A DNA stretch of 29,764 nucleotides, taken from IMG/VR virus record IMGVR_UViG_3300021963_000475, positions 1-29,764 of that record; one strand, 5' to 3'. Below the pieces are notes generated by a model, which had not been told where the DNA came from, searched no databases, and saw nothing but the letters and a program-made list of their open reading frames with translations. The number at the start of each line of letters is the position of its first letter. Positions within the stretch are counted from its first letter, which is position 1. This DNA is from a virus. Its lineage: Duplodnaviria; Caudoviricetes. A program made the position numbers and the translations under genes. This document shows, in pieces, positions 2,745-28,109 of this stretch.

Positions 2745-3005
2745 TTGCCTAAGTTCACCATTACTATCACCGACGTAGAAGCCGCAGCCCTCGCGCATGT
2801 GATGGCAGACCCGCAAGAGTGGGCGCAGAACGCGATCAGCGAACGTGCTCGGGTCGCTACGGAGGAGATCGTGCAGCGCGAGGTCGCTCGCATGGTTGCC
2901 GACCCAAGCATTACGGAGATTCCTGCTACTGCTGCTGAAATTGTGATGGCGGCTGCGCTTCCAGAAACTCTTACGCACACGCCAAAGATTTCCGGTGATG
3001 TATGA
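2745..3005 (+). CDS. Small protein downstream of the fibre (possible fibre chaperone)
   Basis: TTG start after GGGAG RBS, ATGA-coupled to the next gene. Function is inferred from position only. Confidence 0.55.
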   Translation: MPKFTITITDVEAAALAHVMADPQEWAQNAISERARVATEEIVQREVARMVADPSITEIPATAAEIVMAAALPETLTHTPKISGDV

Positions 3006-3736
3006 CTATTTTTGGTAGTGGGCATCAAGTAGTAACCAGTACAACTCGCCCGGGAAGCCCTATTGTCGGTCAGGTTATCTATGAAACGGACACGTTTAGT
3101 TACCGTTGGTGGACTGGCGCTGCATGGGAAGGAGTGGTGCCAGTTGGCACAGTCCAACCGTTTGCTGGGGCGACTGCCCCGAGCGGGTGGCTTTTCTGTG
3201 ATGGTGCCGCAGGTACGGGCGCTGGAACGGGTACGCTAAATGGTTCTGCTGGTCAGCCTTTTGCTGCTTTGTGGGCAATGATTGGCAATACTTACAACGT
3301 TGCTGGAACGCAGTCAGCATTCTATTTGCCTGATATGCGCGGACGCGCACCTGTTGGTAAGGGCGCGAACGCTGCTGTCAGTGCGTTGAATAACAACGAT
3401 GGTCTCGCCAACGCGTCTCGTAGTCCTAGCCATTCCCATACAGTAAATTCGCATAACCACACAGTTGATTCGCATGCCCATGGGCCGGGTGGGTATAACG
3501 CTCGCTGGGTCGCTGGCGGTAACATCTATTACGCTCAGGTCGGCGGCGCTGGCAACTGGGGCACAACTGTGTACGGTGGTGTCCAGACAATTGGCGCTAA
3601 CGCTGGCACTCTTGGCGGTGGTCTCATTGTGCAGGGAAGCAGCGACGCGTCTGCGCCGGGAACCAATTACTCGTCTCCGGGGACGACCGCTTCCGGCGGT
3701 TCGTACGTTACGTTGAACTACATCATCAAGTATTGA
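3002..3736 (+). CDS. Tail-collar domain protein (short fibre)
   Basis: PVGTVQPFAGATAPSGWLFCDG..LWAMIGNTY..FYLPDMRGR, SHSHT/SHNHT His repeats, C-terminal LNYIIKY. Confidence 0.85.
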   Translation: MTIFGSGHQVVTSTTRPGSPIVGQVIYETDTFSYRWWTGAAWEGVVPVGTVQPFAGATAPSGWLFCDGAAGTGAGTGTLNGSAGQPFAALWAMIGNTYNVAGTQSAFYLPDMRGRAPVGKGANAAVSALNNNDGLANASRSPSHSHTVNSHNHTVDSHAHGPGGYNARWVAGGNIYYAQVGGAGNWGTTVYGGVQTIGANAGTLGGGLIVQGSSDASAPGTNYSSPGTTASGGSYVTLNYIIKY

Positions 3737-6955: not shown

Positions 6956-7974
6956 TGGCAAAGCCAGTTAAGAAGAATACTCCCGGCCCGTACGATACGC
7001 CGTTTATGACTAAACGCGAGCGTGAGCGTAAGGCTCAGCAGACTGCGCGTGGTGCTGTTGAGAGCGTTACTGATATTGAGAATCGGAGGCGGCGTGAGGA
7101 ACTTGCTGCTCAGGGGATTACTCAGTCGTTTCAGCAGATGCTTGCTCAGCAGGCGAATGCTCAGGCTAGTCGCCTTGCTGCTATTCAGGGTGCTGCTGGT
7201 GAGAATGTTGGTGCTGGTACTCTTGCTGCTTCGATTACTGGTACGACGCAGGCTGCTGATCTTGCGCCGCGTCTTGCCGCTGGCCGCGGTACGGAGATTC
7301 AGTCTGATGTTGCTGCTCGCGCGTCGCAGGCGCGTAAGGAGCGGGCACAGGATTTTCGCAAGTATTTGACGCAGGCTCGTGCTGATGTCGAAGCGGGCGA
7401 GCGCGAGAAGCAGGCGGCACAAATCGAATCTGCTGCTACGGCTAAGGCTTATGATCTCAAGTTGAAGGATTATGAGCGTGGTGTGTACGAGTCTGATCGT
7501 AAGTACGAACTTGATCTTGCTAAGTATGAAACGCAGTTGGCTAAGGCCGACACGGGTAAGATTGATGATCTTATCCCGACGTTTACTTCTATTGCTAAGG
7601 ACTCCGCATCTAAGAAGGGCACCGGTGGTTGGGAGGGTACGGTCACTTATACGGATTCCATTGATGGTAAGCAGAAGAAGATTGATGTCAAGGGTGTCGC
7701 GTTTGACCCGTCGAAGAAGACGGGCGCTCAGCGTGATGCGTTTTGGAAGAAGTATGTTGAGCAGAAGACTGGGGCTAAGGTCTCAGGCATCCCTGTCCGA
7801 AATGTTGAGCGCGGTTCTACTAAGCGTTCTCCTTCTGAGATCGCCAAGATGATGTTTGAATCGGCGGGTACGCTTGGTTCGTTTAGCGATGCTGAGATCT
7901 ATCAGGCTATTATGCGCACTCCGTTCGGCATGATGAATGCTGCTGCGGTGCGAGAGGCATATCAGGGGCTGTAG
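6955..7974 (+). CDS. Putative internal virion/ejection protein (coiled-coil, Ala/Gln-rich)
   Basis: Helical A/Q/E-rich N-terminal half. TAATG overlap. Directly precedes the largest gene. Confidence 0.55.
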   Translation: MAKPVKKNTPGPYDTPFMTKRERERKAQQTARGAVESVTDIENRRRREELAAQGITQSFQQMLAQQANAQASRLAAIQGAAGENVGAGTLAASITGTTQAADLAPRLAAGRGTEIQSDVAARASQARKERAQDFRKYLTQARADVEAGEREKQAAQIESAATAKAYDLKLKDYERGVYESDRKYELDLAKYETQLAKADTGKIDDLIPTFTSIAKDSASKKGTGGWEGTVTYTDSIDGKQKKIDVKGVAFDPSKKTGAQRDAFWKKYVEQKTGAKVSGIPVRNVERGSTKRSPSEIAKMMFESAGTLGSFSDAEIYQAIMRTPFGMMNAAAVREAYQGL

Positions 7975-7975
7975 A

Positions 7976-10900
7976 TTGCCCCCGCTTCCGCGTAACCCTA
8001 AGAGGGGGCCAATCGTCATTACGTCGGGGCCGGGCCGCCCTGCTCCTATTAAGAAGCAGCCACTCCCGGCTTACGGGCCGTACAAGTTGCCGCTTACGGA
8101 TGTTGAGAAGCGCATTGTTATTAAGAAGCGCACGCCTAAGTACATTGATACGCCGCAGGGGAGGATCGCTACTGGTGGTGGTGGCGTTGGATTCTTCACT
8201 AAGGGCGACAAGGGTAAGATCATGGGGCGCGTTCGTGAGCGTGCCATGGAGCGCGAGGGTGCGTTGCGCGACAAGGTTGAGCGTCAGCGCGTTGCTGCGT
8301 CGGAGCCTCGGCTTGCTGCTCCGCCGTTGCCTAGCCTGAAGAGCGTTGTTCGCGAAACGAAGAAGGAGGATTCTAACACGGGTTTTCTTGAGGGGCTTGC
8401 TGACGACATTGGTCTTGACGACTTTTATCGGGACAATGTTCTCCCGACGGTTGGTCGTGCTTTTGGTCAAATGTTTGAGAATGCGAAGGAAACGTATGGC
8501 GTTAGCGTTGTTGCTCCGGGCCTAAACATTGCTCGTACTGTTGCTGACGCTACGGGTGTTAGTGACAAGATTGATGAGCCGTTTGATTATGCAGCGAACC
8601 TTGTCAAGGGTGGTGCTGGTATCGCGAAGACGCAGGGCTTTGATCGTGCTAAGCCGTATGTTGCTGGTGTGATTGATGGTGCTTCGAAGTTAGGCAAGGG
8701 CGGAGTTGAGGCTGTTGGCAAGGTAGATGATTTCTTGCAGACAGAGGTCCCTGTTTACGATTCTGTGAAGACGTGGACTGATCGTAACGCTGTGCAGCCG
8801 TCAAAGGATGCGGCCGTTGAAGTGTTGTCGCGTGTGACGGATCAGCCGATCAATAAGCGTATCGATAAGGCTGATGAGTTTGATCGTAACTTTGTTTATC
8901 AGGCTAACGATATTACGCAGCGCGGGATGGAGCGCGAGACTGCTGCTCCTCAGGAGCGCCGTGATGTGTGGGTGCAGATGGCGCTTGGCGAGTTTGACGA
9001 TCCGGCTTGGGAGGGTTACAAGTCTCCGTTTACTCGCGAGCAGTTGGAGCGAATGTCGGATTACGAGTTGGCGAATGCTGCGTATGGTACGCATACGAGC
9101 ACGATTGCTTCGTTGTTTGAGGCTGCTAAGAATGATCTGAAGAAGATTGGCGCTATGCCTGCGGCGATTGGCGCGTTGTCGCGACAGATTCAGGACGCGA
9201 ATGACAAGGGTGATTTTCGCGGTCTTGGCAACATGGCGGAGTTCCTTGTTCGTCAGGGCGTGTCGAACATGGTGGCGCTTAGTAAGGCGAACTTGTATGT
9301 GATGACTGGCGGCAAGGCTGGTAATTATCAGGATCTTGTTCGTGCTTTGCAGGCTGAGCCGATTCTCACTGGTCTTGATGTTGCCTCCACGGCAACGATT
9401 TATGGCAAGGCCGCGACGTTTGGGTTGAAGTCTGGCGGCGCCCTTACTAAGGCTGGCGCTGTTGCTAGCCGCGTCCCGGGTGCCGTTCCTGCTGGCCGTG
9501 TTATTGCTCGTGGCGCTGAGGCTGCTGCCGCTCGTCCTATTGCCGGTGCTCCTCTTCGGGCTGCTGCTACGACTGGTCGCGGGTTGCGCCGTATTGCTGA
9601 TGTTGAGGAGGTTCAGGTTCGCGATCCAGCCATGGCTGCTGTCGGGGATATCGCTGGCGCAACGGTTGGTGCTGACCGCACGTTCAGGCCGTCCTCCTCG
9701 TTCTTCTCTAAGTCTGCTTCGCTTTTGCGCAAGCGGCTATACGAGGGGAACAATCCCGTTTCGCGTGCTATCTACAAGCGCGGAGAAGTCGCTGACGCTA
9801 GCAAGTTCCGCGCTATCGCGTCTGCTGTTGTCGAAGAGTTGGGAACTGAGCGTGCCGCTCCTGTCGTCAAGGCGTTCAAGGAGATCTTTGATGAGGATCC
9901 AAACGTGGCGTTGCGCGTCATGTGGGATCTCAGCGGTTCTGAATCTTTCAAGATGCCTGAGGGTCTTGGTGGTCGCGTTGTTGATCTGACTCCGGGTAAG
10001 CGTGCTGACGAGTTGGAGGGCGTACTTGCTGGGCAGTTGTGGGTTAGGCGCGGCGGCAAGGATGGCGATGATGCGTTTAGGTTTAGCGATGCTTCTCCGG
10101 GGGAGGGTTGGGCAAACGTTGTCACCAAGAAGCCTAAGGGTATGCCCAAGGGTACCGTTATTAAACTAAGTAAGATTGAGAAGGCGAACATTGAGCAGAG
10201 CATTCTGCTTCTTCGCAAGATTGACGAACTCCCAGAAGATGTTGTTGCACGCGCTAAGGAGCGCCTTGACGCTCCGTATCGTGAACAGTTTGGCGAAACG
10301 ATTGGTAAGCGGATTGGCGGGCGTAACGCCCCAGAGGGTTCGCTTACTGATGTTCTGCAGTTGCAGGAGTTGCAGAACATGCGGAGCCTTGATCGGCTCG
10401 GAGTAAATATCGACCCACGTATTGCTGATATTTCTCCGGGTGTACAGTCACGTTTGTCTGAGCGGTTCGGTATCGGGAAGCCGACGAGTATTGGGCGTCG
10501 TGATGTTGCTGGTATTGCTCGTCTTCAGGACGAGACAATCGCGCGTCTGATGCCGCTGGTTGGCGACGAGTTCCGGGCGGAGATTGAGAAGATTCTCTCT
10601 GAACAAAAACTAGAAGTATCTAAGCGTCTTGTTGATCTTGAAAATAAAAAGGTCGCTATTGAAAAATCCAAAGAGAACCTTTCGGAATTCGTTGACAACA
10701 TTGATGAACTTGACGCTGAGATTAGTTTGCTTGAGGAAAAACTTGGCGCACTGAATGCGGAAAACCCCGAGGTTGTGCAACTTACTCATCAAGAGGCTTG
10801 GCGGTTTGCGTCTAAGGCTGCTGATTTTTGGAAGAAGTTGTATGGGAAAGCAAATGGTGGCGCTGGGTCTGTCGACGCTCCGACTTGGAAAGATAGCCCA

Positions 10901-13900
10901 GTCACGAGTCCCGGAATTGTTCTCGGTATAAAAACGGGAGATGCAACGGGTAGTAATACTTCTGGGGTTTCTGGTTTCTGGACTGGTATTGACGGTGTCA
11001 AGCGCTATGTAAAGCAATATGCTGATCGGAATCAGGCTGTTGGCGAGGTCATCGCTAACGAGATCTATCGTCGTCTTAGTGCTGGCGCTCCGGTAAGCAA
11101 GATCACTTCAAAGTACAGTGACGATACTCAGTTTGTTGCTAACGACATTATCGACGTCTTCAAATTTGAGAAGTCGTCTTTTGATGTAGACGAAATTCAG
11201 CAGTTGTCGGAAAAAATTGTTGACCGTATTGTTGCTGATTTGTGGCTAGCGAATTGGGATGCGGTTGGAGTAGGCGGGGAAAACATTGGCATTACCGTCG
11301 AGACAAATATTCCCGTGCGCCTTGATCAAGGCGGTGCGCTGTTCCACCGTGCTCAGGGAGAACTAAAGACTAGTGCCCAACTGGATAACTTTAGTATTGA
11401 GGATTTTGTTACTCAGAATCCGAACTATAAGGCAGTGATTAACAATGCTGGGTACGAGAATGTCGCGGACATTGAGGGTCTTGGTCTCCAACTTCTTGCT
11501 ATCCATAAACTTATTGACGATTCTGGTGGCCTATCTCGTTTTGTCGACGATCTTACAAATGATCTTGACGTAAGCCAATCGTATAAAAGCGACCTCTACA
11601 ATCTTCTTGAGAGGAGGCTCGCCGTTCTTGACGAGCAAATCAGGATTTCTGATAACGACTTGGCGCTGTGGAAAAAGTCTTTTGCTAAGTCTGATGAAAC
11701 TGTTGGTGACGTTGGCGATGCCGACTTGCCTACGCTTACGCCTGCTCAAGTTTCGTCAATGAAAAGTTCTCTGAACTGGTATATGGGAAGTGGCTACTGG
11801 GATATCAACACTGCTCTTAGGGGAAGCAGTCCAATTAACAGCAGTGTTCAGAAGTCTATTGACAATATGGACAGCCTCTTTGATCTAGCACCTGTAACTG
11901 AAAAGCCTATGATTCTTTTCCGTGGTATTGGAGATCCGGGTACATACGATGATATTCAGGCTGGGGAGATTATTGCTGATAAGGGATTTCTTTCTACGTC
12001 GTTCAAGCCAATGACTGCTGAGGGTTTCGGTGGATCACAGGGTCAGAAGGGGATTGTTCTTGAGATTTATTTGCCTGAGGGGAGTAAGGCTGTATATGGG
12101 CATGGCGCTGCGCATGAGGGTACTGGGACGCTTAGCGCTACGTCTTTTGCTGGTGGCGAAAACGAAGTAATCCTTCCTCGCGGGACAGAGTTTTACATTA
12201 CGGATGTTGCGAATTATGGAAGTGGCGCCAAACTCGCTCGTGTTTATGCGATTACTCCGGGTAGCAAGTTCTCTATCGAAGATATTCCAGAGTTTGGTGG
12301 AACTAAGCAGAAGGGAATGATTGAGGAAGCGCTTCCGAAGAAGTTGGAAAAGAAGCAGTTGGCTGTTCAGGCGAAGAAGGCAATTGAGGATCAGTCTAAT
12401 TACGAGAGCGTTGTTGCTGATCTTGAGAATGCTAAGCGTGAATACACGGCTATTGACGACGCGTTGAAGGATATTGACATGATCGCTGAGTCGCTTATGC
12501 GTGACGTGATTGAGTCCGGCGCTATCCCAACTGGCGCTCGTGTGCATATCCCGACGCTTGGTAGTCCTAAGGGCGCTAAGAAGACTGTGCTTCCTAAGGA
12601 GGCGCTTGCTGGTCGTGGTCGTCCTCGCGACATGCTCAATATTTATACGGGGCAGTTTGCTTTGCTTGGTTCGGTTGAGGATCTTGAGCGGTTCTCTGGT
12701 GCTCTTGCGCGCAATCTCCGTATTCCGTTTGTTGCGTTTGAATCTGTTACTCGGTTTACTGATTACTTGATGCGTACCGGTACTACGATCAAGTTTTCTG
12801 GTGATAAGGCCGCGTTTAAGAAGCAGAAGGCTGATCTTCTTGAGGCTGGAATTATCAACGGCAATGGAGAACTTGGTTCTGATTATGTTGTTCTGCCGGT
12901 TAACGAGCAGACTGGTTTTCTTGATGCTGACTCTTTTGCCAAACTTGACTTCAAGAGGGCTGAGGAGGTTGGCACAAAGGGGCGTAGTGATGCTGGAGTT
13001 GATGACGCGCAGATTGCCGTGATCTTTGAAAAGGCCCTGAACGACAATGCGTTTGACAATCTTGATTCGATCAAGCCGGGAAGCCGCGTTGTCATTCTTA
13101 GCAAAAAGCGCCTTGATTCGTTGAAGAAGGAGATGGCTGCCGCCGCCGAGAGTCCCGGTCTATTGCGAAGGATCACTCGCCAGTGGGTTCGCTTTACTCT
13201 TACGACCCTCCCTCGTACTCCGATTGCGAATATCGCTGGCTCTGGTTTGTTGTCTGCACTCGGTGGTGGACTTGGCGGATACCCGGAGGCAATGCGTATG
13301 CTGCGTCGTGGTCAGGCTCCGCCAGAACTGTTGAACAATGGTTTGGCTGGTTCGTTTGACGAGGGTGGAGATCTCGTTATTGCTCCTGAGCGTGGCGCCA
13401 AGTTCCGTGGTGCCCAGCGTTACATGAACTACATCTATTACTACAACGTAATGGGCGAGGACCTTGCTCGCTTGTCAGTATTCATGCAGGCCATGAAGCG
13501 CGGCCTGAAGGACCCGAAGACTCGCGCCAAGATTGATGCTGAACTCAAGGAAGTAATGGATCTTAACGATTCCTTCCAGACCCTTCTTGAGGCTGTCTCT
13601 CGTGGAGAGTTTGCGAATGGCAAGGCGCTTACACCAGAGTTAATCAAGATTCGCGATAACGCTTTGCAGAAGGCTGATGATTTTCTTGGTGGCGCTCGCG
13701 GGTTGACGAGTCGTCAGCGTCTTGTTACTACTGCTGTCCCGTTCTGGATGTGGTACAAGCACATCTTCAAGTTGTACTTCTATACGCTTCCGTTCAAGTA
13801 TCCGGGTCGGTCGCTTGCCCTGAATGCGATGGCTCGCCTTGGCGCTGAGGAGTCTGCTCGTAATGGCTTCTACGATTCGTTCTACGAGGATGCAATTAAG

Positions 13901-14503
13901 GTTGGCGAAGAGGCGTTCGGTAGCAACATTTATTCCAAGGGGCTTGCTACCAACATCTTCCCGTTCAACTTTGGTGGCGCTCTTGAGTACGACGAGGGCG
14001 CTCCGGGTGTCCAGTTTGCGCTATCGAACATTGCCCCGACGATTACTGTTCCTGCTCGCCTCGCTGGTATTGGCATCCCGGGTGCTCCAGTCATTGGCGC
14101 TGGCGGAGAGCGCCTGAAGCCGGGCGACGTGTTCGCTCCGGGTTATGCTGAGGCTGCCGTATCTGAGGCGGAGAAGTTGTTTGCTCCCCTTGGTCTTGCC
14201 CAGAGCACACTCGCTCCGCGATCTAGTCTCATCTTTGATGCGTATCGTCTTGCCGCTGGTCAGCCGTTGCCTGAGGCGCAGCAGCGTGGTGAGGGTGAGC
14301 AGTACGCCGTCACTCCGCGTGGCGCTGCTGGCCTTGGGTTGCCGCAGTCTGTGCTTGATATGTTCATGCGCAGTTTTGGTTTGAGCGTTGTCCGCACGCC
14401 TGTCAGGGGGCCGGTTGCCGAGCGGCGCATTCGTGACGAGCAGGCTCGCCTTGAGGAGGAGGCGCGGAAGCGCTATCGCGAGAGCCTTGGGTTAGACTAC
14501 TAG
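7976..14503 (+). CDS. Very large internal virion (ejection/polyvalent) protein with inserted kinase-like and ADP-ribosyltransferase domains
   Basis: Probable TTG start at 7976, just after the upstream stop. Kinase-like motifs YVK, EVIANEIY, DLWLANWD..N, RLDQGG (about 10950-11630). R-S-E ART motifs Y..INTALRG, LFRG, FLSTS, ENEVILPRG (about 11735-12260). C-terminal PFWMWY region resembles large phage ejection proteins. Confidence 0.8.
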   Translation: MPPLPRNPKRGPIVITSGPGRPAPIKKQPLPAYGPYKLPLTDVEKRIVIKKRTPKYIDTPQGRIATGGGGVGFFTKGDKGKIMGRVRERAMEREGALRDKVERQRVAASEPRLAAPPLPSLKSVVRETKKEDSNTGFLEGLADDIGLDDFYRDNVLPTVGRAFGQMFENAKETYGVSVVAPGLNIARTVADATGVSDKIDEPFDYAANLVKGGAGIAKTQGFDRAKPYVAGVIDGASKLGKGGVEAVGKVDDFLQTEVPVYDSVKTWTDRNAVQPSKDAAVEVLSRVTDQPINKRIDKADEFDRNFVYQANDITQRGMERETAAPQERRDVWVQMALGEFDDPAWEGYKSPFTREQLERMSDYELANAAYGTHTSTIASLFEAAKNDLKKIGAMPAAIGALSRQIQDANDKGDFRGLGNMAEFLVRQGVSNMVALSKANLYVMTGGKAGNYQDLVRALQAEPILTGLDVASTATIYGKAATFGLKSGGALTKAGAVASRVPGAVPAGRVIARGAEAAAARPIAGAPLRAAATTGRGLRRIADVEEVQVRDPAMAAVGDIAGATVGADRTFRPSSSFFSKSASLLRKRLYEGNNPVSRAIYKRGEVADASKFRAIASAVVEELGTERAAPVVKAFKEIFDEDPNVALRVMWDLSGSESFKMPEGLGGRVVDLTPGKRADELEGVLAGQLWVRRGGKDGDDAFRFSDASPGEGWANVVTKKPKGMPKGTVIKLSKIEKANIEQSILLLRKIDELPEDVVARAKERLDAPYREQFGETIGKRIGGRNAPEGSLTDVLQLQELQNMRSLDRLGVNIDPRIADISPGVQSRLSERFGIGKPTSIGRRDVAGIARLQDETIARLMPLVGDEFRAEIEKILSEQKLEVSKRLVDLENKKVAIEKSKENLSEFVDNIDELDAEISLLEEKLGALNAENPEVVQLTHQEAWRFASKAADFWKKLYGKANGGAGSVDAPTWKDSPVTSPGIVLGIKTGDATGSNTSGVSGFWTGIDGVKRYVKQYADRNQAVGEVIANEIYRRLSAGAPVSKITSKYSDDTQFVANDIIDVFKFEKSSFDVDEIQQLSEKIVDRIVADLWLANWDAVGVGGENIGITVETNIPVRLDQGGALFHRAQGELKTSAQLDNFSIEDFVTQNPNYKAVINNAGYENVADIEGLGLQLLAIHKLIDDSGGLSRFVDDLTNDLDVSQSYKSDLYNLLERRLAVLDEQIRISDNDLALWKKSFAKSDETVGDVGDADLPTLTPAQVSSMKSSLNWYMGSGYWDINTALRGSSPINSSVQKSIDNMDSLFDLAPVTEKPMILFRGIGDPGTYDDIQAGEIIADKGFLSTSFKPMTAEGFGGSQGQKGIVLEIYLPEGSKAVYGHGAAHEGTGTLSATSFAGGENEVILPRGTEFYITDVANYGSGAKLARVYAITPGSKFSIEDIPEFGGTKQKGMIEEALPKKLEKKQLAVQAKKAIEDQSNYESVVADLENAKREYTAIDDALKDIDMIAESLMRDVIESGAIPTGARVHIPTLGSPKGAKKTVLPKEALAGRGRPRDMLNIYTGQFALLGSVEDLERFSGALARNLRIPFVAFESVTRFTDYLMRTGTTIKFSGDKAAFKKQKADLLEAGIINGNGELGSDYVVLPVNEQTGFLDADSFAKLDFKRAEEVGTKGRSDAGVDDAQIAVIFEKALNDNAFDNLDSIKPGSRVVILSKKRLDSLKKEMAAAAESPGLLRRITRQWVRFTLTTLPRTPIANIAGSGLLSALGGGLGGYPEAMRMLRRGQAPPELLNNGLAGSFDEGGDLVIAPERGAKFRGAQRYMNYIYYYNVMGEDLARLSVFMQAMKRGLKDPKTRAKIDAELKEVMDLNDSFQTLLEAVSRGEFANGKALTPELIKIRDNALQKADDFLGGARGLTSRQRLVTTAVPFWMWYKHIFKLYFYTLPFKYPGRSLALNAMARLGAEESARNGFYDSFYEDAIKVGEEAFGSNIYSKGLATNIFPFNFGGALEYDEGAPGVQFALSNIAPTITVPARLAGIGIPGAPVIGAGGERLKPGDVFAPGYAEAAVSEAEKLFAPLGLAQSTLAPRSSLIFDAYRLAAGQPLPEAQQRGEGEQYAVTPRGAAGLGLPQSVLDMFMRSFGLSVVRTPVRGPVAERRIRDEQARLEEEARKRYRESLGLDY

Positions 14504-24877: not shown

Positions 24878-24885
24878 GTCGTGCT

Positions 24886-24950
24886 CCCTTCTGTTGGTGT
24901 ACCCATAGTGTGGCACAAGATTGTGGGTTGTTTTGTAAATACTTTGTGAG
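24886..24950 (-). promoter_or_regulatory. Repeated early promoter/leader cassette, copy A
   Basis: CTCACA-N5-TTTACA, CACAATCTTGTG palindrome, CACACT -10-like hexamer, TACACC, AGAAGGG. Confidence 0.75.
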
Positions 24951-24959
24951 TATTTACCG

Positions 24960-25077: not shown

Positions 25078-25138
25078 CCGCAGACACCCCCGTCGTGGCG
25101 GGTGTTTCGTCCGGCGCTCATCAGTGCGGGATGCCGGA
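25078..25138 (-). ncRNA. Type I hammerhead ribozyme (1-bp stem II plus pseudoknot)
   Basis: UCCGGC-AUC-CCGCA-CUGAUGA-G-CGCCGGA-C-GAAA-CACCC-loop-GGGUG-UC^UGCGG. Full core, stems I and III, GUC triplet, and loop II GCCGGA pairing with 5' UCCGGC. Confidence 0.92.
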
Positions 25139-25590: not shown

Positions 25591-25656
25591 TCCCTTCTCG
25601 TGGTGTACTTACAGTGTGCCACAAGATTGTGGCTTGTTTTGTAAATCCTTTGTAAG
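25591..25656 (-). promoter_or_regulatory. Repeated early promoter/leader cassette, copy B
   Basis: CTTACA-N5-TTTACA, GCCACAATCTTGTGGC palindrome, CACACT, TACACC, GAGAAGGG. Confidence 0.78.
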
Positions 25657-25658
25657 GA

Positions 25659-25883
25659 TTATTCGGCGTCGTCCGGGTAGTCGTAGTCTCCGGCGTATTC
25701 GTTACGCATTGCCGTGGTATGCGCCTCGCTGATCAGTCGCCGAAGTTCCCAGATCATGGTGCGTTCCGGGTTGATCGACGCCGGGGTATTAGTTAGCAGG
25801 GTCAGTCCGTCGATGATGGATGCCATCTCGCGGATGGTCAGTGTGTCGGCGATGATGTCGTGCCGCTTCTCTGTAGTGCTCAT
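25659..25883 (-). CDS. Hypothetical protein
   Basis: GAGAAGGGG RBS before ATG 25883. Confidence 0.65.
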   Translation of the reverse strand: MSTTEKRHDIIADTLTIREMASIIDGLTLLTNTPASINPERTMIWELRRLISEAHTTAMRNEYAGDYDYPDDAE

Positions 25884-26751: not shown

Positions 26752-26818
26752 TCCCCTTCGTTCGGTGTAGTCACACTGTACCGCACGATTGCGGCACGGT
26801 TTGTAAGTATTTTGTAAA
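26752..26818 (-). promoter_or_regulatory. Repeated early promoter/leader cassette, copy C
   Basis: TTTACA-N5-CTTACA, CCGCAATCGTGCGG palindrome, TACAGT, TACACC, GAAGGGGA. Confidence 0.75.
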
Positions 26819-26910
26819 GATTCGCGGCCGGCCACCCCCCCTAATCGAAGGCGCACTCCTCCCTTCCTCCTGCCCTCCGGGCGCACTCCGAACCGCCTAG
26901 CCTATCCAAA

Positions 26911-26953
26911 GGGGAGCGCCGGGAATCGAACCCGGCAAGGCCAGCCACTCCCC
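26911..26953 (-). ncRNA. tRNA-like minihelix (acceptor stem plus T arm; no D or anticodon arm)
   Basis: GGGGAGUG-GCUGGCCUUG-CCGGG-UUCGAUU-CCCGG-CGCUCCCC. Canonical T loop, 5-bp T stem, 8-bp acceptor-like stem. Confidence 0.7.
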
Positions 26954-26959
26954 GCGCGC

Positions 26960-27079
26960 CTACCCTATGCGTAGCACCCGGCACGCCTCACGCGCCTGCT
27001 CGCGCTCCTCCGGCGTCAGCACCTCCCCCGCCTTCAGTCGCGCCACGAATGCCGCCACCCGCTTTTCCGCCGGGCTCAT
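26960..27079 (-). CDS. 39-aa hypothetical protein (not in the ORF track)
   Basis: MSPAEKRVAAFVARLKAGEVLTPEEREQAREACRVLRIG*. ATGA overlap with the upstream gene. Confidence 0.6.
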   Translation of the reverse strand: MSPAEKRVAAFVARLKAGEVLTPEEREQAREACRVLRIG

Positions 27080-27396
27080 GCCGCCACCGCCATACGCGCC
27101 GCACGGTGCGCCCACTTCTCCCGGGATCCCTCCCGATACCCGCCACGCTTACCGTGCTGAGACTTGCCAACCGGCCGCGCCTTGCACGCCCACGCAGGCA
27201 CCCGCGCATCCGGCAACACCGTCACCGTGAACACGCGCCCATCGATCACCCGGAACCCCGCACCCGCAGGCACCGGCACGCCATCACGCTGCACGCCCAC
27301 GAACCGGCCACCCGCACCGCGCAGCATCACGCCACCACCAAAGGCGGCCACCCCCGTGGGGGAGATCATGCCGTCACCCCGCTTTGCAACCTTCAT
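27076..27396 (-). CDS. Hypothetical protein, first gene of the leftward operon
   Basis: TACACC..GGAAGGGG leader before ATG 27396. Confidence 0.6.
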   Translation of the reverse strand: MKVAKRGDGMISPTGVAAFGGGVMLRGAGGRFVGVQRDGVPVPAGAGFRVIDGRVFTVTVLPDARVPAWACKARPVGKSQHGKRGGYREGSREKWAHRAARMAVAA

Positions 27397-27402
27397 CCTG
27401 CA

Positions 27403-27476
27403 CCCCTTCCATTCGGTGTAACCACACCATACCACACCCCAACCCCCCCAAACCAAACCCTAACAAAACCCTTACA
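27403..27476 (-). promoter_or_regulatory. Cassette copy E (upstream box inverted)
   Basis: TGG-TATGGT extended -10, TACACC, GGAAGGGG. CTAACA-N5-CTTACA lies on the + strand at 27460-27476. Confidence 0.5.
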
Positions 27477-27989
27477 ACCCCAACCCGCCGAGGTGTTGGG
27501 AGGGTACGCGCGCGCGACGCCCACGCCCGAGCGAGAACCCCACCCAACGCGCCCGACCGTGTACCCATCCTCGGTCAGGTTTTTTTGTGGGTAAGGGGTT
27601 TGTGTAGGCTGCTTCTTGCGTTGGGCGGGTCGGGTATGTTCTGGATGATACTGGTGTGGGGGATATTCTTTGCCCCTCCCTAGCCTTTGGGCTAGCCAAC
27701 GTCCGTTTAGCGTGCTTGTTGTCCCTGCACGATCCGACCTAGCCGTTTCCGGGGTTGTTTGTCTGGCCGTCCGATGGAAGTCCGTGGTGCGGTTGCTTCG
27801 TCGGTGCTCCGGCTAGACGCGGAGGCTGGTGCCTTGACCCTTGAGCGTGGGTGTGGGGCTTGTGTGTAAAGAGTATCATGCTCTTTGTTCAATGATGTGT
27901 GTGCGTTTTGCACATTGTCGTGCTTGTTTGTGTGTTGGTGTTCGACATATCGTGCGAATGATCGTTATTTCGTGTATGGTTCTCGCATT

Positions 27990-28071
27990 GGCGGGATGGC
28001 GGAACTGGTAGACGCAGCAGACTCAAAATCTGCCGCCATGTGGCGTAAGGGTTCGATTCCCTTTCCCGCTA
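27990..28071 (+). tRNA. tRNA-Leu(CAA)
   Basis: Acceptor GGCGGGA/TCCCGCT+A, D loop with TGGTAGAC, anticodon arm GCAGA-CTCAAAA-TCTGC, long variable arm CGCCA/TGGCG, T arm AAGGG-TTCGATT-CCCTT. CCA is not encoded. Confidence 0.93.
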
Positions 28072-28109
28072 TTTGTTCTGTTCTATTAAAAATGCTTTAG
28101 GAGAACAAA

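Follow-up and report, generated by a model that had tools for sequence, protein, structure and literature searches.

Why a phage genome should carry, a few nucleotides behind a stop codon, what resembles the top half of a tRNA is the question raised by a 43-nt element at positions 26953-26911 on the minus strand of the 29,764-nt stretch of viral DNA analysed here (the window). An initial annotation had placed at this site, without giving a strand, a canonical T arm on a two-stranded acceptor-like stem joined by a 10-nt linker, and had suggested an mRNA processing signal or a tRNA decoy. The element and this architecture were confirmed, on the minus strand, as was its start 6 nt past a stop codon: the TAG (26962-26960) of a 39-codon ORF is followed by GCGCGC and then by the element. 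Read 5'->3' it is GGGGAGUG-GCUGGCCUUG-CCGGG-UUCGAUU-CCCGG-CGCUCCCC, with 8 acceptor-like pairs, the 10-nt linker, a 5-bp T stem and a 7-nt T loop. The T arm, which lies outside any canonical tRNA, matches GGTTCRANYCC, the sequence criterion for t-elements. Neither RCCA nor CCA is encoded after the helix, where U/A-UUGG is found instead; a CCA could be supplied once the 3' end has been trimmed.

The real window holds exactly one such fold, and none was present in 300 order-3 Markov copies of the window or in 300 order-2 Markov copies trained on 24.8-27.6 kb (0/600 simulated windows). The 43-mer alone folds at -23.4 kcal/mol (z -1.98), with 7/200 shuffles being equally good. Its minimum free energy (MFE) fold is a 7+6 arrangement of acceptor and T stem pairs in which the linker forms a 2-bp GG-CUGG-CC stub, and both this and the 8+5 register comprise 13 bp. 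In the 8+5 register the outer pair is G-1:C73 in tRNA numbering, counted from the T loop. The likeness to tRNA-His that had been claimed on this basis is possible but hinges on the register chosen, the MFE fold being the other one; moreover, no CCA is encoded. The description of the element as lacking D and anticodon arms holds for the anticodon arm, but is too strong for the D arm, as the linker's predicted mini D-hairpin, with its UGG, is kept in orthologs. With flanking sequence included, ViennaRNA, the model of which omits tertiary elbow contacts, gives the outer acceptor pairs of the window copy a probability of 0.0-0.3. For the window copy and its ortholog in G002, the acceptor stem in context has P 0-0.3 and lies 3-11 kcal/mol above the MFE, for G004 and G005 it is favoured (P 0.79-1.0) and for G001 the outcome is mixed; folding in context is hence weak for 2/5 orthologous types.

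ARAGORN at default settings and Rfam (E<=5) made no call on the element. Identity with tRNA (RF00005) was rejected given the silence of both programs, the absence of a cloverleaf and anticodon arm, and a linker of just 10 nt. Allowing introns at a low threshold, ARAGORN returned 12-27 spurious calls per genome, one of which ended at 26911, and these were set aside. Identity with mascRNA/menRNA was likewise rejected, as there is no RF01684 match in the window at E<=5 and no anticodon-like arm. Two other possible folds, a larger enclosing stem and an alternative in which the 3' strand pairs with the purine block, are not kept across orthologs. Rfam detected no C4 RNA in the window.

The window is a virus record encoding a terminase large subunit, an exonuclease, a single-strand annealing protein, DUF932 and gp88. 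From ~27.4 kb down to 22 kb it carries small minus-strand genes, several of them behind copies of a 70-nt repeat ending in a Shine-Dalgarno (SD)-like GAAGGGG (Table 1). In the hairpin of this repeat the letters vary among copies while the self-complementarity stays, and TA(C/T)AGT or TATAAT and then the SD follow. The repeat may represent an activator box plus operator or a hairpin promoter, and the small-gene block appears to be an early region with repeated promoters, as predicted from the repeats themselves; a sigma-70 scan found no promoter site, and no minus-strand terminator-like site was detected in 21.8-28.2 kb. The 39-codon ORF looks coding, because 17/24 of its variable sites are at third codon positions. 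Downstream, the trailer at 26861-26910 is conserved like the minihelix itself, contains a GCCC-GGA-GGGC hairpin and AGGAGGAAGGG, and is not followed by a conserved ORF; its variable columns number 3/50, compared to 29 in the next 40 (4 sequences), and the block is present in G005 and sequencing run X5 too. Elsewhere in the window, a 2188-aa ORF (7937-14503, plus strand) has an Alt-like ADP-ribosyltransferase domain at about residues 1273-1430, and its product is probably an injected virion protein for host takeover.

Table 1. Features of the minihelix locus and of related loci.
Feature	Position	Strand	Remarks
tRNA top-half mimic, 13 bp from T loop to helix end	26911..26953	-	43 nt
Acceptor-like stem, 5' strand GGGGAGUG	26946..26953	-	last G: acceptor (8+5) or mini D stem (7+6)
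Predicted mini D-hairpin GG-CUGG-CC, D-loop-like UGG	26939..26946	-	
T arm GCCGGG-UUCGAUU-CCCGGC	26918..26936	-	T loop 26930-26924
Acceptor-like stem, 3' strand GCUCCCC	26911..26917	-	
Conserved 50-nt trailer: U/A, UUGG (no CCA), GCCC-GGA-GGGC hairpin, purine run	26861..26910	-	
39-codon ORF	26960..27079	-	TAG 6 nt before element; absent in G005
106-codon ORF upstream (start may be later)	27076..27396	-	in G005 the element follows its stop
Promoter-like repeat (TTACA direct repeat, hairpin, TACAGT, GAAGGGG)	26753..26822	-	before gp88
Further promoter-like repeat copies	25591-25660, 24885-24954; partial 27404-27437	-	
Hammerhead-type ribozyme motif	25078..25129	-	18 nt after TAG; before another repeat copy
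GUCRAA cassette repeats	G003:C1 11738-10860; L154 3765-2320	-	3 copies in G003, 4 copies in L154

The sequencing runs that hold this phage best are marine metagenomes, and among the listed runs there are no RNA sequencing runs. The closest cellular relatives of the terminase are just 38-44% identical, BLASTN against GenBank phages gave no relative, a metagenome scan with the upstream ORF gave no match, and a DNA-pattern search of metagenomes yielded 3 chance loci and 1 locus identical to the window. Related phages, in which a pattern search had been proposed as a check, carry the element at orthologous loci with its pairing intact. Out of 15 gp88 loci found, all of the close ones (6/6) carry it, and a search with the downstream block returned 8 loci, 7 with the element upstream and an eighth that matches by chance and is unrelated. 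Among the 4 close types 52/52 cells are paired, and across five orthologous sequence types all 13 pairs are kept, two pairs having changed on both sides. Pair 5/39 is A:U, G:C or G:U among orthologs; at pair 7/37 there is U:G, U:A or, in contigs from runs X3 and X4, C:G. The outer pair is G:C in 5/5 orthologous types (13 bp; register-dependent). The proposed register beats every slid register (100% versus 52-67% paired), and covariation within the 4 close sequences was not above the shuffle control (257/500). The UGG of the linker is conserved in orthologs, the loop reading AUGG in run X4, and the T loop differs between relatives.

More telling is the diverged relative G005, about 70% identical over the element region, where the junction of T stem and acceptor is shifted: a 6-bp T stem and 7 acceptor pairs again total 13 and the linker forms a 4-bp GGGC-UGGU-GCCC stub. 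The 39-codon ORF is lost there, and the element stands 7 nt past the stop of the preceding gene, which is then the last one. Run X5 was initially taken to be element-less, with a joint skipping 26890-27109; this was rejected since the 102 letters inserted there reproduce the spacing of G005 exactly, and judged by that spacing it most likely carries the G005 form.

A sister subclade (G003, L155 and L154) has a different tRNA mimic in the leader of its first small gene. This mimic combines 8 pairs with a 5-bp T stem, again 13 bp, and has a longer D-like hairpin and no anticodon arm. In G003 and L154 it has C:G where the orthologs have the outer G:C; a T stem pair is swapped between C:G and G:C when G003 is compared to L154. 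In G003:C1 a ~350-nt structured minus-strand leader without an obvious ORF (~12400-12060) ends in this anticodon-less mimic. Ahead of successive small genes, G003 and L154 furthermore repeat a cassette consisting of a GUCRAA-loop hairpin, a CCGGC hairpin, an SD and an ATG. These GUCRAA hairpins differ in stem sequence, yet 6/7 are 12 bp long, and 5/7 begin 4-6 nt past a stop triplet. A looser hairpin of this kind occurs on average 0.95 times per simulated genome; the G003/L154 copies are clustered, on the same strand, of the same length and set in one shared cassette. When the cassette motif is found elsewhere in viral contigs, 64/71 distinct matches have stems of <=3 bp. The GUCRAA loop is not a canonical T loop, and may adopt a T-loop-like fold.

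A spacer parallel to that of the minihelix contains a hammerhead-type motif whose stem II is very short and for which a cut after GUC at 25083 is predicted; it matches Rfam RF03152 (RAGATH-1-hammerhead) weakly, at 29.4 bits against a gathering score of 56.3. G001, G002, G005 and L182 retain the motif, G005 with stem III altered on both sides, and G004 and G003 lack it. Perreault et al. (2011, PMC3088659) proposed that phage hammerheads occurring in clusters divide long transcripts into mRNAs of gene size.

Minihelices of this kind recur in other viral contigs. A pattern scan covering 13/64 parts of the contig collection listed matches at 123 loci in 111 distinct contexts, and among these listed contexts there were 38 tRNAs, 41 tRNA 3'-half-like sequences, 12 weak cases and 20 minihelices, after L078, L101, L108, L138 and, weakly, L126 had been removed as tRNA matches by an Rfam scan before counting. 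Collapsing a 4-member family and removing the clade's own copy reduced the 20 listed minihelices to 16 families. Rfam, run on 17/20 of them, recognised no family beyond sub-threshold mascRNA/tmRNA matches. The G003 element, L037, L047 and L128 have matches to RF01684 below threshold. Arm lengths in the listed set were 11-15 bp with a mode of 13 (8/20), where the pattern itself allowed 11-16. UGG is present in the linkers of 11/16 unrelated families listed, where shuffles predict 4.25 (p 5e-5); in 9/16 it falls in the first 7 nt of the linker, the expectation being 2.0. A stop within 12 nt was seen on the same strand for 8/20 and on the opposite strand for 4/20 listed minihelices, a weak enrichment. 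In L017, an unrelated phage, a sequence (~2940-3010, plus strand) about 2 kb upstream of a gp88 gene comprises a T arm and, by eye, a 7-bp acceptor-like stem ending in GCCA, and has no Rfam match.

The clade also encodes genuine tRNAs. A tRNA-Leu(CAA) without encoded CCA lies at 27989-28072 (plus strand); it is missing in L139, L146 and L150, three close relatives that keep the minihelix, and is followed in L149 and L151 by a tRNA-Gln(UUG). The tRNA-Leu of the window and the tRNA-Gln of the two relatives lack an encoded CCA and continue with UUUG or UUGG, from which it follows that the host would need a CCA-less 3' trimming activity. The U/A-UUGG trailer of the element resembles these trailers, and an origin of the element from the clade's tRNA-Gln, with its G-run acceptor and shared trailer, is plausible, the sequence being too low in complexity to show it.

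We consider it moderately likely that the element is a phage 't-element' acting in cis, at which cutting by host RNase P and/or RNase Z would punctuate read-through transcripts. The upstream two-gene unit would be transcribed from the repeat copy at 27437, and the transcript would fold in vivo, its UGG contacting the T loop in the manner of tRNA G18/G19, whereupon host RNase P on the 5' side and/or RNase Z on the 3' side could take the T-loop elbow as reference point and cleave, with predicted sites at 26953 (or one base in) and after 26911/26910. Such cutting would provide a defined end for the upstream two-gene mRNA, where no intrinsic terminator was seen, and separate it from the downstream genes, and a ~43-45-nt RNA would be released as a by-product if both enzymes acted. 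Published work describes RNase P, RNase Z and the CCA enzyme as using the acceptor-T stack to measure distance from the elbow, with RNase Z acting on CCA-less precursors (PMC4919913), and reports cleavage of acceptor+T hairpins by bacterial RNase P (PMC11143913), t-elements as cutting signals in plant mitochondria (PMC1920247) and Haloferax (PMC4326828), and, in mascRNA, the rebuilding of the elbow by two G's of a small D loop (PMC11693755). The conserved T loop, UGG and 12-13-bp length are what elbow recognition would select, and the 6+7 split of G005 and the 5+8 split of G003/L154 all total 13 bp, which argues for a ruler. That the element stays behind a stop in G005 despite the loss of the 39-codon ORF supports the proposed role as well. 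Counting against this role are the disfavoured acceptor stem of the window copy and G002 in the ViennaRNA context folds, the covariation of the 4 close sequences, which does not exceed the shuffle control, the weak stop enrichment in unrelated phages and, for RNase P cutting, the missing RCCA, as RCCA is reported to strongly aid bacterial RNase P on non-tRNA substrates (PMC12710915). Between the two functions suggested by the initial annotation, the processing signal is favoured and the decoy less so, on account of the post-stop place, the conserved 12-13-bp length, the repeated copies in the sister subclade and the hammerhead-type motif in the parallel spacer.

The element could instead remain uncut and act behind the stop as a block to 3'-5' exonucleases, a polymerase pause or a site for an elbow-reading protein, thus replacing a terminator. 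Its position closing the predicted unit, with the next promoter-like repeat 130 nt further on, would suit this, as would the lack of RCCA and of terminator-like sites on this strand in the 21.8-28.2 kb region; for a blocker, however, neither a fixed 12-13-bp length nor a T loop or UGG would be required, and the hairpins of G003/L154 stand ahead of an SD and ATG within what appear to be operons, which makes this reading rather unlikely. We regard it as a little less likely still that the released small RNA is the purpose, namely a CCA-tailed, possibly histidylated 13-bp minihelix serving as a defence decoy or synthetase occupier. HisRS is described as charging 13-bp minihelices with G-1:C73 (PMC9976931), and an outer G:C that can be read as this pair is present in 5/5 orthologous types; Cas12a3 is reported to read the T-arm, acceptor stem and CCA and to cut truncated tRNAs (PMC12851939), and two minihelix-like elements stand before two tRNA-Ser genes in L002 (in tandem at 2880-2920 and 3000-3041, plus strand, just ahead of these genes). 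On the other hand, CCA is not encoded, the register is ambiguous and the G003/L154 form has C:G at the outer pair, while anticodon nucleases would not be decoyed and the repeated SD-cassette copies suit a cis role better. Cutting by another host nuclease, for example RNase III, seems very unlikely for the element itself. RNase III cuts the early RNA of T7 into single-gene mRNAs, and the continuous 12-bp hairpins before successive genes of the sister subclade resemble that layout; the window element, by contrast, is a three-way junction with a canonical T loop and not a long duplex, and RNase III fits the plain GUCRAA hairpins better.

Two further explanations were weighed. A decayed tRNA gene or an attP core with no current role as RNA is highly improbable and has largely been refuted. 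Although tRNA 3' halves often mimic minihelices (41/111 contexts among the matches listed) and the acceptor strands and UUGG trailer resemble the clade's tRNA-Gln, no full tRNA occupies the site in any relative examined, the T loop varies, the stem changes all keep pairing and the element outlasts the tRNA-Leu in three close relatives, in support of the initial view that this is not a decayed tRNA. As for attP, the T arm with the 3' strand had 0 exact matches in the genomes of 185,579 species, from which the true host may be missing, and tyrosine integrase PF00589 was found in 0/5 related records, 4 of them >=90% complete. By the tests run, the element is neither a tRNA, a mascRNA nor an att core. 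Hardly to be expected, finally, is conservation due to an overlapping 47-codon frame (26984-26841) or a DNA-level role: the frame is open in 4 close sequences, but its variable sites are distributed 8/6/5 over codon positions 1/2/3 and its start is lost in G001, and the pairing changes fit RNA structure.

As a candidate cutting signal, the element can be compared to several known systems. Plant mitochondrial t-elements (Forner et al. 2007, PMC1920247) share the GGTTCRANYCC T arm and a non-decoding tRNA-like fold at an mRNA end, for which cutting by RNase P and RNase Z is proposed there; the phage element is much smaller at 43 nt and lies 6 nt past a stop, and the transcript ends have been mapped only for the plant elements as described in that report. 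Likewise, the t-element upstream of 5S rRNA in Haloferax volcanii is a tRNA-like cis signal for tRNase Z and RNase P, although it is archaeal, makes an rRNA end and is reported with demonstrated cleavage, while the phage element is known from its sequence (PMC4326828). The mascRNA/menRNA family (RF01684) has an acceptor-T stack, a shrunken D loop with two G's contacting the T loop, and processing by RNase P and then RNase Z, but as described it is vertebrate, ~58 nt long and 7+5 bp, and keeps an anticodon-like arm, in contrast to the 13 bp and missing arm of the phage element (PMC11693755). Synthetic acceptor+T substrates of RNase P (PMC11143913) and minihelix-His (PMC9976931) share the top-half geometry, including, in one register, the 13 bp and G-1:C73. 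Those hairpins are laboratory constructs, whereas the phage element is natural, embedded in a transcript and without CCA. Both the synthetic acceptor+T hairpins and minihelix-His end in CCA. The clustered hammerheads of prophages (PMC3088659) similarly punctuate phage transcripts at the RNA level but are self-cleaving; M3 RNA, C4 RNA and T4 gene 32 mRNA are presented as natural phage RNase P substrates and are not top-half tRNA mimics (PMC11143913), and the theta ribozymes described beside phage tRNAs (PMC10879173) are a different device. Among the open-access papers that our searches listed, none describes anticodon-less phage minihelices.

A far-reaching extension would be that a kit of interchangeable phage tRNA top-half mimics (a 12-bp hairpin, a 13-bp form with a mini D-loop and a 13-bp form with a D arm) together with hammerheads widely punctuates early transcripts, and that the window copy is in addition excised, CCA-tailed and histidylated at G-1:C73, so that a naturally aminoacylated minihelix would act as a decoy for defences aimed at the acceptor end, Cas12a3 among them; we consider this combination improbable. 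What this locus contributes is a helix length kept through a shift of the junction, the post-stop placing of three distinct mimics in one clade and the enrichment of UGG. If the element is cut, tRNA punctuation, known from organelles and one archaeal rRNA, would extend to phage mRNA, and the substrate would be natural and close to minimal. A natural series within the clade (12 versus 13 bp; no, mini or longer D arm; canonical versus GUCRAA loop) lends itself to studying what RNase P and RNase Z require of CCA-less substrates, and the element is a possible compact cutting signal for synthetic operons. Such elements escape ARAGORN and Rfam and yet recur in unrelated phages, and may thus constitute an unannotated layer of phage gene control.
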